DNA of 50,781 nt, taken from the IMG/VR virus record IMGVR_UViG_3300033075_000810; one strand, given 5' to 3'. A model generated the notes under the pieces. The model saw only the letters and a list, made by a program, of their open reading frames with translations, searched no databases and was not told the DNA's origin. Positions 27,452 to 30,656 of this stretch are shown here, in pieces (the stretch's first letter is position 1; the number at the start of each line of letters is the position of its first letter). This stretch comes from a virus. The position numbers were made by a program, and so were the translations under genes.

Positions 27452-27553
27452 GCTGCTCCTCTTCGTGTGTATTGGAGGCCGGGGTGGTGCTAGTCGGTGT
27501 CGCCCATCACCGAGCTTAGTCACGCACCCCGGCCATGTAGCCGGTGGAAATAG

Positions 27554-27606
27554 GTCGCTGACGGTGTCTTTCAAACTGGTGGTGAAGTAACCGTCAACCG
27601 CAACTC
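27554..27606 (-). repeat. conserved hairpin module copy R1 (GACGGUG-UCUUUCA..UGAAGUAACC-GUC + GCAACUC)
   Basis: One of four aligned copies with conserved UCUUUCA / UGAAGUAACC / GCAACU blocks. The outer stems covary between copies. Confidence 0.55.
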
Positions 27607-27615
27607 ACCGGCGAG

Positions 27616-27694
27616 TGAGGGGGCAGGAGTTGGACCTGCACCTCTTGGTCGTCGCCCATACAACCAAGCATCCTAGTCATTGGACCACCCCCTC
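27616..27694 (-). ncRNA. tRNA-like domain T1 with 15-nt 'anticodon' loop (YrlA-like candidate)
   Basis: Perfect 7-bp acceptor GAGGGGG/CCCCCUC. D-arm. Stem CUUGG/CCAAG closing a 15-nt loop. T-arm GCAGG-TCCAACT-CCTGC. Confidence 0.5.
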
Positions 27695-27723
27695 AGAGTG
27701 CCCGTTCAGGGAGAGAGGTATGC

Positions 27724-27776
27724 CCAGAGTGTCTTTGCACAGATAGTTAGTGAAGTAACCCTGGACCGCAACTTCC
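27724..27776 (-). repeat. conserved hairpin module copy R2
   Basis: agagUGUCUUUGCA..GUGAAGUAACCcugg..GCAACU. Confidence 0.5.
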
Positions 27777-27788
27777 CTGAACGGAGCA

Positions 27789-27859
27789 GTGGGCGTGGAT
27801 GGAATTGAACCACCGACCTGCCGGTTAAACCCGGCTGCTCTAACACTGAGCTACACGCC
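27789..27859 (-). ncRNA. tRNA-like T2: perfect cloverleaf but 6-nt anticodon loop GUUUAA (UUA triplet)
   Basis: GGGCGUG/CACGCCC acceptor. D-arm GCUC-AGUGUUA-GAGC. Stem GCCGG/CCGGC with a 6-nt loop. T-arm GGUGG-TTCAATT-CCAUC. Confidence 0.5.
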
Positions 27860-27974
27860 CCCGATCTCGGCTTTGCTAACCATATGTGACTGCCGAGAAG
27901 AGCCACACTTCAGTCCCTCCTAAGGCGTGTCTGAGTCGCATTAGGCCATATTATGCTACCTACTTTTCATTAGG

Positions 27975-27991
27975 GCTGGAATCGAACCAGC
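27975..27991 (-). other. orphan T-arm (GCTGG-TTCGATT-CCAGC) 14 nt downstream of tRNA-Cys-like gene
   Basis: Canonical T-arm with no room for the rest of a tRNA. Confidence 0.35.
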
Positions 27992-28005
27992 ATCTACTCA
28001 GACAG

Positions 28006-28082
28006 AGGCCACGCCTGGAATCGAACCAGTAGGAACGAGTTTGCAGCCCGCCGTAGGGAACCTCCCCACTACCCGCATGGCC
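28006..28082 (-). tRNA. tRNA-Cys(GCA)-like with 12-nt D-loop
   Basis: GGCCAUG/CGUGGCC acceptor, U73 (Cys-type). Loop CUGCAAA. T-loop TTCGATT. Confidence 0.5.
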
Positions 28083-28115
28083 TTTTGAGCCGGCACCGCA
28101 TTGACAAAGATCGAG

Positions 28116-28190
28116 AGGCGGGGGCTGGATTTGAACCAGCGACCTTCCTGAGTTTTACCCCAGGACGCTCTGCCACTGAGCTACCCCGCC
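28116..28190 (-). ncRNA. tRNA-like T4 with 10-nt 'anticodon' loop
   Basis: Perfect acceptor GGCGGGG/CCCCGCC. D-arm GCUC-AGUGGCA-GAGC. Stem UCCUG/CAGGA around GGGUAAAACU. T-arm GCUGG-TTCAAAT-CCAGC. Confidence 0.5.
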
Positions 28191-28237
28191 GTTTCGCCCC
28201 TGCAACTCCCGATGCGAGTTTGTGCCAGAGGAAACAA

Positions 28238-28288
28238 GTCGCTGACGGCGTCTTTCAACCACATGAAGTATCCGTCAACTGCAACTCT
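28238..28288 (-). repeat. conserved hairpin module copy R3
   Basis: GACGGCG-UCUUUCA..AUGAAGUAUCC-GUC..GCAACUC. An extra GCAACUCCC copy lies at 28202-28210. Confidence 0.5.
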
Positions 28289-28297
28289 CTGGCGAGG

Positions 28298-28389
28298 CGG
28301 TCGGGCCGGGACTTGAACCCGGCACCTGCCCTGTTGAACCGGCGTCGCCCCTCACCGATTGCGGGCCGTTCTGCGTTAAACTACCGACC
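28298..28389 (-). ncRNA. tRNA-like T5 (92 nt; canonical T-arm CCGGG-TTCAAGT-CCCGG, irregular core)
   Basis: Acceptor GGUCGGU/CCCGACC (one mismatch). The interior does not fold as a standard D or anticodon arm. Confidence 0.35.
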
Positions 28390-28410
28390 GTACTTGAGGG
28401 GGAAATAATC

Positions 28411-28464
28411 GCCGCCGGGTCTTTTCATCACACTGGTTGAAGTAACCGACGACTGCAACTCCCC
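28411..28464 (-). repeat. conserved hairpin module copy R4
   Basis: CGCCGGGUC-UUUUCA..UGAAGUAACC-GACG..GCAACUC. Confidence 0.5.
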
Positions 28465-28506
28465 TCATGTTTCGCTCGCTGGGTTCGTGACCCGCGACTG
28501 ACTTAC

Positions 28507-28534
28507 ATCCTAACCGCGTCTGCCGTGTTGTCAA
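28507..28534 (-). promoter_or_regulatory. sigma70-like promoter for the tRNA-like/repeat cluster (-35 TTGACA, 16-nt spacer, -10 TAGGAT)
   Basis: Read on the minus strand: TTGACA(28534-28529) ACACGGCAGACGCGGT TAGGAT(28512-28507). Sits between the rsr terminator and R4. Confidence 0.4.
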
Positions 28535-28620
28535 GCTGGACTTCCTTGTTTTTCTCGCGGCTTGCGTCGGTGACATCCGTGTCACTGAGAGCATGTTACC
28601 CGAATCCTCGCCCCTGTCAA

Positions 28621-28651
28621 CCCCGCCTGTGATTTTTTCTCACAGGCGGGG
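28621..28651 (-). terminator. 12-bp GC-rich hairpin immediately 3' of rsr stop (probable terminator)
   Basis: CCCCGCCTGTGA-ttttttc-TCACAGGCGGGG. The flanking U-tract is weak, so efficiency is uncertain. Confidence 0.4.
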
Positions 28652-28662
28652 CCGCAGGTGGT

Positions 28663-30615
28663 TCAGGCCAGCCTGTACCGCTCACGCAGCACGGCCACGG
28701 TCGGCACTTCCTTGGCCTTGTCCTCGGCCTCCTGGCCGCTGGCGTTGTTGCTGTTGTCCGCCTTGGGGACCTGGTCGCCCAGTTCCACGTCGCGGATGAT
28801 GCTGAAGACCTGCTCGGACCAGCCGGACAGCAGGTGCGTCTTGCCCTCGTCGGGCTTCAACTGCGACTGGCTGTAGCCGGACAGGTTGATCGAGTAGGCG
28901 TAGCAGTCCTTGTTGACCTCCCGCCGGTAGCGGTTGATCATGCTCTGCATGGTCGCCTTCTCGCCGCCCTTGCCGAAATAGCGGCTCATGTTCACCGAGC
29001 AGTTGATGTCACCCTGCGTGTAGCAGCACAGGTCCGAGATCATGACGATCCGGTCCACCTTGTACTTCCGCTCGGTGAGGTCGTGCAGTGCCCACCACAG
29101 GCCCGTCTCGGTGCTGCCGCCCACGCCCATGCCCCGCTTGTAGGCGTCGATGGCGAGGGCGTTGTTGGCGGAACGATCCTCACGCTGGGCCTTGGCGTCG
29201 ATGATCTCCTTGATCCTCAGGGTGCTGTCAGCCTGGCTGAACGGCACCCAGATCAGGGAGTCACCGAAGACGCCCACGATGCACCGCCGGCCCAGCCTCT
29301 TGGCGAGGATGGCACCCAGGGTGTTGCCGGCGTCGGACACCCTCATGTCGGACTTGCCGCTGATGGCGGCGGACACGGCAGAGCCGCTGTTGTCCACCAG
29401 CACCACGGTCACGCCCGGCAGGTCGGGCACGTTCTGCACCGACTGGTCCAGTTGCATCGAGACGAGGGTCTTCGCCTCGGTGCTGCTCGTCTGCTTCAGG
29501 GCCGTGAAGAACCGGAACGGAAGCTGGCACGTCTCCTTGATCTTGCCGCACTTCTCGTAGACCACGTCCCAGGCCCGGTCACTGATCTTGGCCTCCTCAA
29601 AATTGCGGAGGTTCCTCGTCAGGGCCATCTCGCCCATGACGGGGATCACCAGTTCCCACACCTCCTTGGAGGTGCCGAACTTGCTGGTGACGTTCTCCCA
29701 CGTCAGGCCGGCCTCCCTGATCATCTCGGTGGTGACCTTGTTCAGGTCGCTCTTGCCGAGCTTGAAGAAGGCGTCCCTGGCCTTGATCATCGCCGGGGCG
29801 TCCGGCAGGATCTCGCCCGTCAGGAGGTAGTGGTAGACCGGCTTCGACAGCGGGTAGCCGCTGTGGGTCATGTCCACCGTCTTGGTGACCTCGCCCTGGT
29901 CCTTGTAGTAGGTGACGACCTTCTTGCGGGGCAGCTTCTTGCTGCCGGCCACCATCTTGACCACGTCCATCAGCGACGGGCGGTTCTCGCCGCCGTCGTA
30001 CTTCAGCAGTTCGTACAGACTGAAGCCGGCGATGGCCGCAGCCAGGCCCTTCCGCAGCGAGTGCGGCAGGGTGCCCTTGTGCCTCTTGCCCTCGGACCCG
30101 CCCTGGAACAGGTGACGGAAGGCCGCGAAGACCTGCTTGATCTCGTCGGGCCGCTGCACAATGTGCGGCGTGTACTTCGCCACGAACGGCTTGGTGGCGT
30201 CGATGGCCGCAGCCACCGTCAGCATGATCTGGGGCGTGGTGCGGACCTTCATGCCGGACTTCGGGTCACGCAGCCAGCGGGCCACGATGAGCAGATCCTC
30301 GGGGCTGTCGCTCTCCGCGACATCCCGGCACGCCTTCAGCACCTCGCGGGCCTGCTCGTTGAGGCCGGCCTTGTCCAGCACGGTGTCCGTGATCCTGCCG
30401 TCCGCCAGCAACTGCGAGCGGAAGTCCCAGTAGGACCGCTCCGTCTCGTAGTAGCGAGGCTCGTTGAAGAACCCGCCGCCGATCATGTGGATCAGCTTCT
30501 GCGTCGGGGACGCGAACTCGTCGTAGGCTCGACCAGGGATGTGCTTGTGAGCCACCGTCTCCTTGTGAGCCGCCTCATGAACGCCCTCGCCCTTGTGCAT
30601 GCCGAGCTTTGCCAC
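28663..30615 (-). CDS. rsr: Ro60 ortholog Rsr (TROVE domain + C-terminal vWA domain)
   Basis: 650 aa. vWA MIDAS DNSGS...T...D. GTG start with AAGGAGAGG SD. Confidence 0.8.
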   Translation of the reverse strand: MAKLGMHKGEGVHEAAHKETVAHKHIPGRAYDEFASPTQKLIHMIGGGFFNEPRYYETERSYWDFRSQLLADGRITDTVLDKAGLNEQAREVLKACRDVAESDSPEDLLIVARWLRDPKSGMKVRTTPQIMLTVAAAIDATKPFVAKYTPHIVQRPDEIKQVFAAFRHLFQGGSEGKRHKGTLPHSLRKGLAAAIAGFSLYELLKYDGGENRPSLMDVVKMVAGSKKLPRKKVVTYYKDQGEVTKTVDMTHSGYPLSKPVYHYLLTGEILPDAPAMIKARDAFFKLGKSDLNKVTTEMIREAGLTWENVTSKFGTSKEVWELVIPVMGEMALTRNLRNFEEAKISDRAWDVVYEKCGKIKETCQLPFRFFTALKQTSSTEAKTLVSMQLDQSVQNVPDLPGVTVVLVDNSGSAVSAAISGKSDMRVSDAGNTLGAILAKRLGRRCIVGVFGDSLIWVPFSQADSTLRIKEIIDAKAQREDRSANNALAIDAYKRGMGVGGSTETGLWWALHDLTERKYKVDRIVMISDLCCYTQGDINCSVNMSRYFGKGGEKATMQSMINRYRREVNKDCYAYSINLSGYSQSQLKPDEGKTHLLSGWSEQVFSIIRDVELGDQVPKADNSNNASGQEAEDKAKEVPTVAVLRERYRLA

Positions 30616-30635
30616 GGTACACCTCTCCTTCAGGA

Positions 30636-30656
30636 CCGACGAAAACGCAACTCCCT
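30636..30656 (-). repeat. partial copy R5 of the GCAACUCCC block just upstream of rsr
   Basis: cgacgaaaacGCAACTCCCtgg matches the 3' block of R4. Confidence 0.35.

Follow-up and report, generated by a model that had tools for sequence, protein, structure and literature searches.

A phage Ro60/Rsr gene followed by an array of tRNA-like elements and covarying hairpins: candidate short Y RNAs of a divergent class

Which RNAs are the partners of the Ro60/Rsr protein encoded on the virus record IMGVR_UViG_3300033075_000810? We analysed a stretch of 50,781 nucleotides of this record (the window; G+C content 61%), which looks like part of a large phage. After the Ro60/Rsr gene, its minus strand carries a hairpin, two sigma70-like promoters and then a dense array of non-coding RNA (ncRNA) elements (28466-27477(-)), in which tRNA-like elements (T) alternate with conserved hairpins (R). 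Ro60–Y RNA particles are conserved from bacteria to humans, and few bacterial Y RNAs have been found. A first-pass annotation of this DNA had taken the tRNA-like elements as Y RNA candidates of the YrlA type. Our analysis points to the hairpins instead: the locus is probably a phage Ro60/Rsr–Y RNA system in which short Y RNAs of the YrlB kind form a polycistronic array punctuated by tRNA-like elements, a reading to which we give a probability of about 0.62. It draws on comparison with related loci, which brought out a predicted Ro60-fold protein, a covarying hairpin family, nested YrlA-type variants, a fixed spacing from tRNA to R, shared trailers and conserved promoter hexamers. The positions of all features are given in Table 1.

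The gene encodes a protein of 650 amino acids, which matches the Pfam family TROVE (PF05731) with 73.7 bits against a cut-off of 23, and also PHROG 850 ('RNA-binding protein'). The AlphaFold2 model of the protein has a mean pLDDT of 77. In a Foldseek search with this model, the best 13 PDB matches are all Ro60, Rsr or TROVE-domain structures (probability 1.0, target TM-score 0.61–0.72), from the Thermus phage phiLo, X. laevis, human and D. radiodurans; the alignment spans 569–630 columns against the Ro60/Rsr structures 9kop, 9l5y, 1yvp, 2i91 and 2nvo. Secondary matches are von Willebrand A (vWA) domains. Concerning the MIDAS motif (DxSxS...T...D), residues D408, S410, S412, T502, T504 and D528 are invariant in 29 homologs, and the first part of the motif reads D408-N-S410-G-S412 in the window protein. 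Both domains of a Ro60/Rsr protein are present, namely the TROVE domain (HEAT-repeat ring) and the C-terminal vWA domain with its MIDAS, in agreement with the first-pass annotation, which had placed a Ro60/Rsr gene on this strand. Based on its homologs, the partner protein appears to belong to a distinct TROVE subfamily of 600–670 amino acids, centred on Planctomycetota and their large phages.

For the hairpins, loci encoding homologs of the Ro60 protein with 37–75% identity were fetched (labelled L with a number), and a covariance model (CM) was built from the window copies and relatives, with a seed alignment of 14 copies. All eight inner-stem pairs are intact in every seed copy, and double compensatory changes are found at 11 of the 14 predicted pairs. 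The CM search of the 50.8-kb window gave four strong copies, R1–R4 (63–75 bits, E-values from 1e-16 to 1e-20), the next match having 15.6 bits. The CM found 92 copies (E < 1e-6), in more than 40 loci and all on the strand of the TROVE gene. Over these copies the bases pair in 96.3% of the cells, compared with 34–54% when the partners are slid by one to three columns. Double changes occur at 13 of the 14 pairs, none of 500 shuffles reached the observed covariation, and both the outer and the inner stem covary. The four imperfect hairpins with conserved blocks and covarying stems that had been described in the first-pass annotation are thus borne out by the comparative alignment it proposed, and its concern that R might be absent from other rsr-encoding genomes did not materialise. 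That R is a dispersed repeat of the MITE or REP type, or a recombination site, with no RNA function is strongly disfavoured and the least probable of the readings considered here: several copies do lie within 1 kb, but they are strictly strand-specific relative to the gene, their pairs carry the compensatory changes just described, and, for proteins that have diverged down to 37–50% identity, the loops are the only part whose sequence is kept.

The R consensus has on its 5' side an outer stem nCnGGA, then N-GGUGC-AG and an 8-bp inner stem ending in GGG/CCC; these are followed by an invariant UUACUUC, a variable apex, and on the 3' side CG-N3-AUUUC and the outer stem UCCnGn. The internal loop is composed of 5' GG(A)-N-G(G/U)UGCAG and 3' CG-N3-AUUUC, and the window copies have GUUGC instead of GGUGC (5' strand AGUUGC(A/G)G). 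R1–R4 are 70–83 nt long with a short and variable apex; the outer stem of R3 is longer than in the other short copies. The unpaired bases G9, U11, G12, U25, C27, U28, U29 and C30 are invariant, and the conserved unpaired bases lie mostly on the 5' strand. This is the strand of known Y RNAs that Ro60 mainly contacts, from which we infer that the R RNAs are ligands of the encoded Ro60. A pairing GUUGC–GCGAC across the internal loop was dropped, as it is not kept in the relatives L123, L121c and L121f. The DNA pattern AGTTGCRG..TACTTCA proved too loose, and the 120 loci with a single match (80 of them listed, L001–L080), which have no other part of the module, were discarded.

At least one R copy is found within 2.3 kb in 30 of the 36 loci with a full-length gene, and its forms at cellular loci resemble those of known Y RNAs. 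In contigs of Planctomycetota metagenome-assembled genomes (MAGs; L167, L169, L176 and L178, and also in L125), the R stem carries a T-arm, a short hairpin and a D-arm as its apex; three of the MAG contigs are chromosome-scale (1.8–3.1 Mb). These long forms are 124–135 nt in length, lie ~30–290 nt upstream of the start codon and score 35–42 bits with the Rfam YrlA model, below its gathering score of 69. An intermediate form of 81 nt with the T-arm only is seen at some loci, and a plain form of 65–70 nt is located ~60 nt past the stop codon. The long form has the layout of YrlA, and R would be the basal stem of YrlA-type RNAs. In its topology the R stem agrees with the Rfam YrlA consensus: an outer stem, a 5' loop ending in UGC, a 7–8-bp inner stem and a (U)ACU-type element before the tRNA-like part. 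According to Chen et al. 2014 (PMC4201824), bacterial Y RNAs are encoded on the rsr strand within 4 kb, with at least two per locus, one containing a tRNA-like module and one being a plain hairpin. Since the three cellular forms reproduce this rule, we read R as a Y-RNA stem. R1–R4 are also on the strand of rsr, 0.2–1.1 kb downstream of it and so within the ~4 kb of YrlA proximity. They fit the descriptive YrlB type of the same paper, a long hairpin whose loop is small, beside rsr, and their spacing suggests co-transcription. The tandem arrangement of Y-RNA-like units had earlier been called unusual, which is true only in part: at least two units per locus from one precursor are published (PMC4201824), and relatives repeatedly have arrays of three to six R units. 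In viral contigs (L181 3334-3577, L185 7684-7818, L186 1995-2165), stems of the R type were also seen a short way upstream of much more distant TROVE genes (23–24% identity to the window protein), so the stem class may be broader than the subfamily.

The elements that alternate with the hairpins have the shape of tRNAs. The Rfam tRNA gathering score of 29 is exceeded by T4, T2 and T5 (Table 1), and T1 is called by ARAGORN only; ARAGORN reports 'anticodons' of 2 nt for the tRNA-like elements. None of T1, T2, T4 and T5 contains a 7-nt anticodon loop with U33 presenting a triplet. The anticodon loop has 6 nt in T4 (GUUUAA) and 10 nt in T2. In T5 the anticodon arm is replaced by a 7-bp hairpin with the loop UAUGGGCGA; the arm can be described as a 6–7-bp stem with a loop of 13 nt (9 nt if the stem is extended) containing AUGGGCGA. 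In T1, a hairpin with a AGGGGCGA loop is inserted in place of the anticodon loop. The first-pass annotation had listed these four elements downstream of rsr with loops of 15, 6 and 10 nt or an irregular core; the 6 nt of T4, the 10 nt of T2 and the irregular core of T1 stand, and 15 nt for T5 does not. Its 'perfect' acceptor, D-arm and T-arm were overstated, since T1 has 6/7 acceptor pairs and a D-stem of 3 bp and T5 has a non-canonical T-loop; the tRNA-like elements themselves are real. It had also left out T3a and T3b, which are located between T2 and T4.

Concerning the orthologs, those of T4 have 6-nt loops (GCUUAA in L121, GUUAAA in L123), and their acceptor and T stems differ by compensatory changes; T1 has two orthologous copies in L121. 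Other orthologs contain a GCAA tetraloop (L121 8383) or hairpin insertions in the D-loop (L123, L124). As the orthologs keep the fold by compensatory changes together with odd loops, the tRNA shape appears to be under selection and decoding does not. It is very improbable that the T elements function in translation, as suppressor tRNAs or frameshift decoders, with R as the inter-tRNA processing or terminator hairpins of a tRNA operon. The tRNA scores of 41–60 bits, a trailer shared with real tRNAs and the presence of R inside true tRNA arrays are consistent with this idea, but loops of 6, 10 and ~13 nt, the GNRA tetraloop of the L121 ortholog and the inserted hairpins cannot present a normal anticodon. 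Also, R contains invariant unpaired sequence and follows chromosomal TROVE genes with no nearby tRNA, and the terminator scan found no U-tracts after the R copies.

Hairpins with a 6–8-bp stem and an 8–9-nt loop (A/U)(A/G/U)GGGCGA are found in T1 (28350), T5 (27657) and the tail hairpin of the array (27505), all on the minus strand, and at L121 7694. The loop motif is loosely like the published Rsr-binding motif GNCGAA. As long-stem copies are present in the window and L121 only, the (A/G)GGGCGA loop hairpin was rejected as a family-wide module. The GGGCGA(C) loops of these three window elements, and the tRNA mimicry known in bacterial Y RNAs (PMC4201824), would favour the version of the first-pass annotation, in which T1, T2, T4 and T5 are themselves the Rsr-bound, YrlA-like Y RNAs and the hairpins are accessory spacers or stabilisers. 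We consider this version improbable. The Y-RNA signature is found in R; the four T elements are complete, free-standing cloverleaves rather than a permuted T-to-D module within a Ro-binding stem, and none of them has an Rfam YrlA match. At cellular loci of the same TROVE family T is absent and R is present, and relatives have canonical tRNAs in the place of T.

T2 is flanked (28088-28226(-)) by an R-like 5' half, GGGAGUUGCAG, before it and a matching 3' half-site, CGAUCUUUGUC, after it, with a weak closing stem predicted; half-sites of this kind were not seen around T2 in relatives. T2 with its half-sites may represent a degenerate R stem that has a complete tRNA-like element nested within it. 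T3a has an 8-bp acceptor, a long bulged D-stem and a 7-nt loop CUGCAAA (anticodon GCA, Cys), and scores 32.1 bits with Rfam tRNA-Sec, below the threshold of 47 bits. Its loop is kept in L121 8574-8652, and T3a may be a working but structurally unusual tRNA. T3b is composed of T-arm, hairpin and D-arm, closed by a stem of non-R type, and is the sole Rfam YrlA match in the region (28.9 bits against the gathering score of 69, E = 0.003). It was rejected as a 'true' YrlA: its score is weak, its stem does not show the R signature, and L121, L123 and L124 have no counterpart of it.

The distance from T to the following R is nearly constant. The gap is 4 nt for T1–R2, 5 nt for T4–R3 and 3 nt for T5–R4, and gaps of 3–5 nt are also found between odd tRNA-like elements and R in L121 (four units), L123 (three) and L124 (two). 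Canonical tRNAs precede R at the same distance in L128 (tRNA-Met(CAT)) and L135-137 (tRNA-Arg(TCG/CCG)); altogether there are three tRNA–R units with this gap in the window and 15 in relatives. At 17 of 18 T–R junctions, C-U directly follows the discriminator base. This N73-C-U trailer is common to ~22 of the 27 genuine tRNAs of the window and to T2, T4 and T5, and no CCA is encoded in the 31 tRNA and tRNA-like genes checked. The trailers suggest a single shared 3'-end maturation signal in this phage, and because of them the T elements look like substrates of the 3'-end pathway of genuine tRNAs. One tRNA of the main array of ordinary tRNAs, 10885-10959(-), has a tRNA score of 51.6 bits and was assigned no anticodon by ARAGORN ('gg').

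A long, YrlA-type R element (R5) is present inside this main tRNA array, 15 kb from the rsr locus and 13.9 kb from its ncRNA array. It is the 15.6-bit CM match (filters off, with a 37-nt insert), and its local Rfam YrlA score is 16.6 bits. Its stem signature is complete by regular expression (GGUGCAG/CUACUUCA/AUGUC), and the apex contains a degenerate T-arm-like, hairpin and D-arm-like insert. The predicted fold closes the outer stem; the inner stem GGACAGGG/CUCUGUUC comes from reading the sequence and is not in the fold. In L188, a 343-kb IMG/VR contig, an R element (2112-2212(-)) lies exactly between two tRNA-Phe genes, with no TROVE gene within the 13.7 kb fetched. The tRNA-Phe of L188 and the tRNA-Asp at R5 hold the position of T next to R, so R RNAs would habitually be made from tRNA-containing precursors. 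In M. smegmatis a single precursor is the source of both YrlA and YrlB; RNase P cuts YrlA, to which CCA is also added (PMC4201824).

The main alternative is that the T–R units stay joined as bipartite Y RNAs of ~150 nt, in which R binds Ro60 and the tRNA-like domain beside it takes the role of the nested module of YrlA. The constant 3–5-nt spacing would fit such a unit, as would tRNA shapes that lack decodable loops, the nested tRNA-like module held by the same stem in cellular relatives, and the R-like half-sites around T2. We nevertheless regard it as unlikely. The element upstream of R is an ordinary tRNA, which needs release to work, in L128, L135-137, L188 and at R5 of the window, and the N73-C-U trailer of the T elements, as in real tRNAs, points to normal 3' processing. 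Also, R1, several R copies of relatives and the R elements beside cellular genes all have no T.

The region between rsr and R1 bears on whether the R RNAs are made from a transcript of their own. Two promoter-like sites (P1 and P2) were found, each with 10/12 sigma70 matches, where 0.4 such sites are expected by chance; the sigma70-like promoter of the first-pass annotation is thereby confirmed as a sequence feature. Its rsr terminator is not: the hairpin past the stop codon (28621-28651) has no T-run, is not called by the terminator scan, and was rejected as a canonical intrinsic terminator. Its role would be either termination that needs no U-tract or stabilisation of the 3' end. L121 repeats the arrangement of hairpin and promoter with a different stem sequence and the same promoter hexamers; those of P1 are kept with a different spacer. 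The promoters are relevant to another explanation, in which R would act in cis within the rsr mRNA or operon transcript, as a site where Ro60 binds for autoregulation, a stabilising hairpin or an RNase site, and would not be a free RNA. Cellular copies are indeed located 26–66 nt upstream of the start codon or 40–135 nt past the stop codon on the same strand. Against it, the window array has its own conserved promoters after the post-gene hairpin, there are up to 4–6 copies per locus with others 15 kb away inside tRNA arrays, and YrlA and YrlB of M. smegmatis, also upstream of rsr, are still released as free RNAs (PMC4201824). We hold a purely cis-acting role to be quite improbable.

Based on these results, the following mechanism can be proposed for the tRNA-punctuated array of short Y RNAs. 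The rsr-type gene would end in a stem-loop, after which one or two sigma70-like promoters (P1/P2) would drive a non-coding transcript of ~1 kb. The T elements appear to keep the acceptor, T and D features recognised by RNase P, by 3'-end tRNA processing and by CCA addition, and to have lost the decodable anticodon loop. They would most likely be processing punctuation, with RNase P cutting their 5' ends and RNase Z or exonucleases acting at their 3' ends, and this cleavage would free each R RNA of ~70 nt. R1–R4 would then bind the phage Ro60 via those loop bases that are invariant, most of them on the 5' strand. During infection the complexes may act as a gate on the Ro60 ring and link it to PNPase or other exoribonucleases of the host, by analogy with D. 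radiodurans, Salmonella and the Thermus phage phiLo, and several R isoforms could give several specificities. In phiLo, a complex of phage Ro60, phage Y-like RNAs and host PNPase has been demonstrated (PMC12135203).

Several points count against this interpretation. The entire case is one of sequence comparison. R1–R4 have no match to Rfam YrlA or Y_RNA at E ≤ 1, and in this Rfam search, a check already named in the first-pass annotation, no element reached the YrlA gathering score (T3b, the best in the array, R5 and the cellular long forms all fall below it). R1–R4 do not contain the nested tRNA-like module of YrlA (T-arm, acceptor-like hairpin, D-arm), which R5 has in degenerate form and which the long forms of cellular loci also have. 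The Rsr-binding motif known from the literature, GNCGAAN0-1G (PMC4201824), is not on the 5' strand of R; CGA occurs in three of the four window copies, on the 3' strand only. As R lacks this 5' motif yet has a YrlA-like topology, we take R1–R4 for short Y RNAs resembling YrlB, in a class that is divergent and specific to this lineage, and not for members of RF02553. With filters off, R is missing from six of the 36 full-length loci. L130/L166 (a 435-kb viral contig), L138, L143 and L175 belong to the same TROVE subfamily (44–53% identity) and have no R in the fetched flanks (6 kb, less at contig ends; filters off); they have other partner RNAs, or the RNAs are encoded elsewhere. R in tRNA arrays far from TROVE genes (R5, L188) may have a role in tRNA-array processing instead of with Ro60. 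Cleavage of T1 and T5, with their aberrant D/T loops, by host RNase P and RNase Z is assumed. The T elements are more conserved and elaborate than bare handles need (6-nt loops, GGGCGA-loop hairpins), which suggests a function of their own.

Table 1. Features of the Ro60/Rsr locus, in the order of transcription, and the distant element R5
Feature	Position	Strand	Evidence	Neighbourhood
Ro60/Rsr-type gene, 650 aa; TROVE ring and vWA domain	28663..30615	-	Pfam, PHROG, Foldseek, MIDAS	
GC-rich hairpin right past stop codon; 12-bp stem, A-rich loop	28621..28651	-	sequence	abuts P1 -35 box
P1, promoter-like, TTGACA-16-TAACAT	28593..28620	-	10/12 sigma70 matches	58 nt to P2
P2, promoter-like, TTGACA-16-TAGGAT	28507..28534	-	10/12 sigma70 matches	~40 nt upstream of R1
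R1, short Y-RNA-like hairpin	28396..28466	-	CM 75.1 bits, E 6e-20	6 nt to T1
T1, tRNA-like	28298..28389	-	ARAGORN, fold	4 nt to R2
R2, short Y-RNA-like hairpin	28224..28293	-	CM 67-70 bits	13 nt to orphan half
Orphan R-like 5' half (GGGAGUUGCAG...)	28191..28210	-	weak	abuts T2
T2, tRNA-like	28116..28190	-	Rfam tRNA 55.7 bits, fold	33 nt to T3a
T3a, atypical tRNA-like	28007..28082	-	sub-threshold Rfam tRNA-Sec, fold	overlaps T3b
T3b, permuted tRNA-like module	27916..28008	-	Rfam YrlA 28.9 bits	7 nt to small hairpin
Small hairpin between T3b and T4	27884..27908	-		23 nt to T4
T4, tRNA-like	27790..27860	-	Rfam tRNA 59.7 bits	5 nt to R3
R3, most divergent short R copy, longer outer stem	27702..27784	-	CM 63.1 bits	7 nt to T5
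T5, tRNA-like	27616..27694	-	Rfam tRNA 40.9 bits	3 nt to R4
R4, short Y-RNA-like hairpin	27540..27612	-	CM 73.3 bits	5 nt to tail hairpin
Tail hairpin, 58 nt, AUGGGCGA loop, closes array	27477..27534	-	fold -39.3 kcal/mol, motif scan	25 nt to p157 ATG
p157, 157-aa gene of unknown function	26978..27451	-		ATG at 27451, 25 nt past tail hairpin
R5, long (YrlA-type) R element	13362..13514	-		between tRNA-Asp (13515-13588) and tRNA-Pro (13282-13358)

The surroundings of the locus are those of a phage with many tRNAs. The 27 ordinary tRNA genes of the window (ARAGORN / Rfam tRNA) are located at 2157-17196(-), and its proteins have PHROG matches to a NAD-dependent DNA ligase, a phosphoesterase, a ParB-like protein and a virion protein. 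The Ro60 protein is recorded on a 114.8-kb JGI contig (P0001), and an IMG/VR single-protein search with it gave no match. Among the 50,697 deposited phage genomes of INPHARED the window has no close relative: the ncRNA region gave no relative with megablast or blastn, its sole match being a tRNA-Asn-like similarity to T4, and tblastn with the Ro60 protein returned only homologs of ≤29% identity. The gene p157 follows the ncRNA array in all close relatives, with homologs of 41–56% identity (tblastn) at the same position in L121 (9439-9903), L123 (7045-7500) and L124 (8433-8894). It matches no Pfam family, its N-terminus reads ...ALxIKKRLAGRL..., and it might be functionally linked to the array. 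L121 and L124 both keep the gene order ligase–rsr–array–p157, of which L123 has the part rsr–array–p157. In L121, the closest relative, a homolog of ribosomal protein L7/L12 (rplL) is inserted in the middle of the T/R array (7841-8224).

Ro60 with adjacent Y RNAs in bacteria and phages, and multiple Y RNAs from one precursor, are already known. The new element would be a well-supported Y-RNA stem class outside the reach of Rfam, paired with the 600–670-aa TROVE clade in Planctomycetota and large phages. Arrays of 4–6 short R copies are also new, as is, judging from the loci compared, the systematic placement of R directly 3' of tRNAs, which in this phage appear to have degenerated to non-decoding look-alikes. 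A full-text search, from which the supplementary lists of Chen et al. 2014 are out of reach, found no paper joining Y RNA, Ro60 and Planctomycetes. More tentatively, at somewhat less than even odds, Planctomycetota and their large phages may share an undescribed Y RNA class (the R stem, GGUGCAG / UUACUUC / AUUUC) with the 600–670-aa Ro60 clade. Its biogenesis would be by tRNA processing, R being the 3' trailers of tRNAs, and here the upstream tRNAs would have decayed to non-decoding RNase P/Z handles, whose conserved odd loops and GGGCGA-loop hairpins may recruit other factors.

The only curated model (YrlA) misses the whole R lineage, and the R stem CM can be used to find Y RNAs of the large TROVE clade in Planctomycetota and in jumbo and large phages. 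The invariant GGUGC and UACUUC are a sharply defined candidate for the Ro60-binding surface. The nested, T-arm-only, plain and tRNA-adjacent forms of R offer a natural series on the origin of tRNA mimicry in Y RNAs; if R elements are indeed tRNA trailers, the locus would represent an extant stage between Y RNAs that lie beside tRNAs and those of the tRNA-nested kind (YrlA), and would bear on whether Y RNAs evolved from tRNAs. A phage array of 4–6 isoforms, presumably cut by degenerate tRNAs, would be a compact system for asking why phages carry Ro60, and whether different Y RNAs direct Ro60 to different nucleases or substrates during infection.

Compared with ordinary phage tRNA arrays, the array studied here has elements that score as tRNAs, the N73-C-U trailer and a tandem arrangement in common, and R5 and the R of L188 lie inside true tRNA arrays. 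It differs in that T1, T2, T4 and T5 have no 7-nt anticodon loop, in its tie to rsr, and in alternating with a conserved non-tRNA hairpin. Like YrlA/YrlB (RF02553; Chen et al. 2014, PMC4201824) and Yrl1/Yrl2 of phiLo (PMC12135203), the R elements are encoded on the strand of a Ro60/Rsr gene and a few kb from it at most, and a locus has two or more of them, of which one nests a T-arm/hairpin/D-arm and another is simply a long hairpin. With YrlA/YrlB they also share the order of stem, large internal loop and stem, the probable co-transcription and the tie to processing of the tRNA type (in M. smegmatis, by RNase P and CCA addition), and with Yrl1/Yrl2 the fact of being phage-encoded. Unlike YrlA/YrlB, R has an internal loop GGA-N-G(G/U)UGCAG ... 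UUACUUC with 3' CG-N3-AUUUC rather than a 5' GNCGAAN0-1G; no R copy is at the Rfam threshold of YrlA and the short forms have no match at all. The partner of R is a distinct TROVE subfamily of 600–670 aa, the copy number is up to 4–6, and R is interleaved with tRNAs or degenerate tRNA-like elements at a fixed spacing of 3–5 nt. The closest architectural analogue of the T–R units is the TMER of MHV68, a viral tRNA-like element joined to pre-miRNA hairpins and cleaved by tRNase Z (PMC4045068). TMERs belong to the eukaryotic pol III and miRNA pathways, with no homology and no link to Ro60, and cleavage of T–R units is predicted only. Both have a viral, non-decoding tRNA-like element directly 5' of a hairpin RNA in tandem units, in our case with a putative role as a handle; with R as tRNA trailers, the array would be a prokaryotic counterpart of the herpesvirus tRNA–miRNA units.

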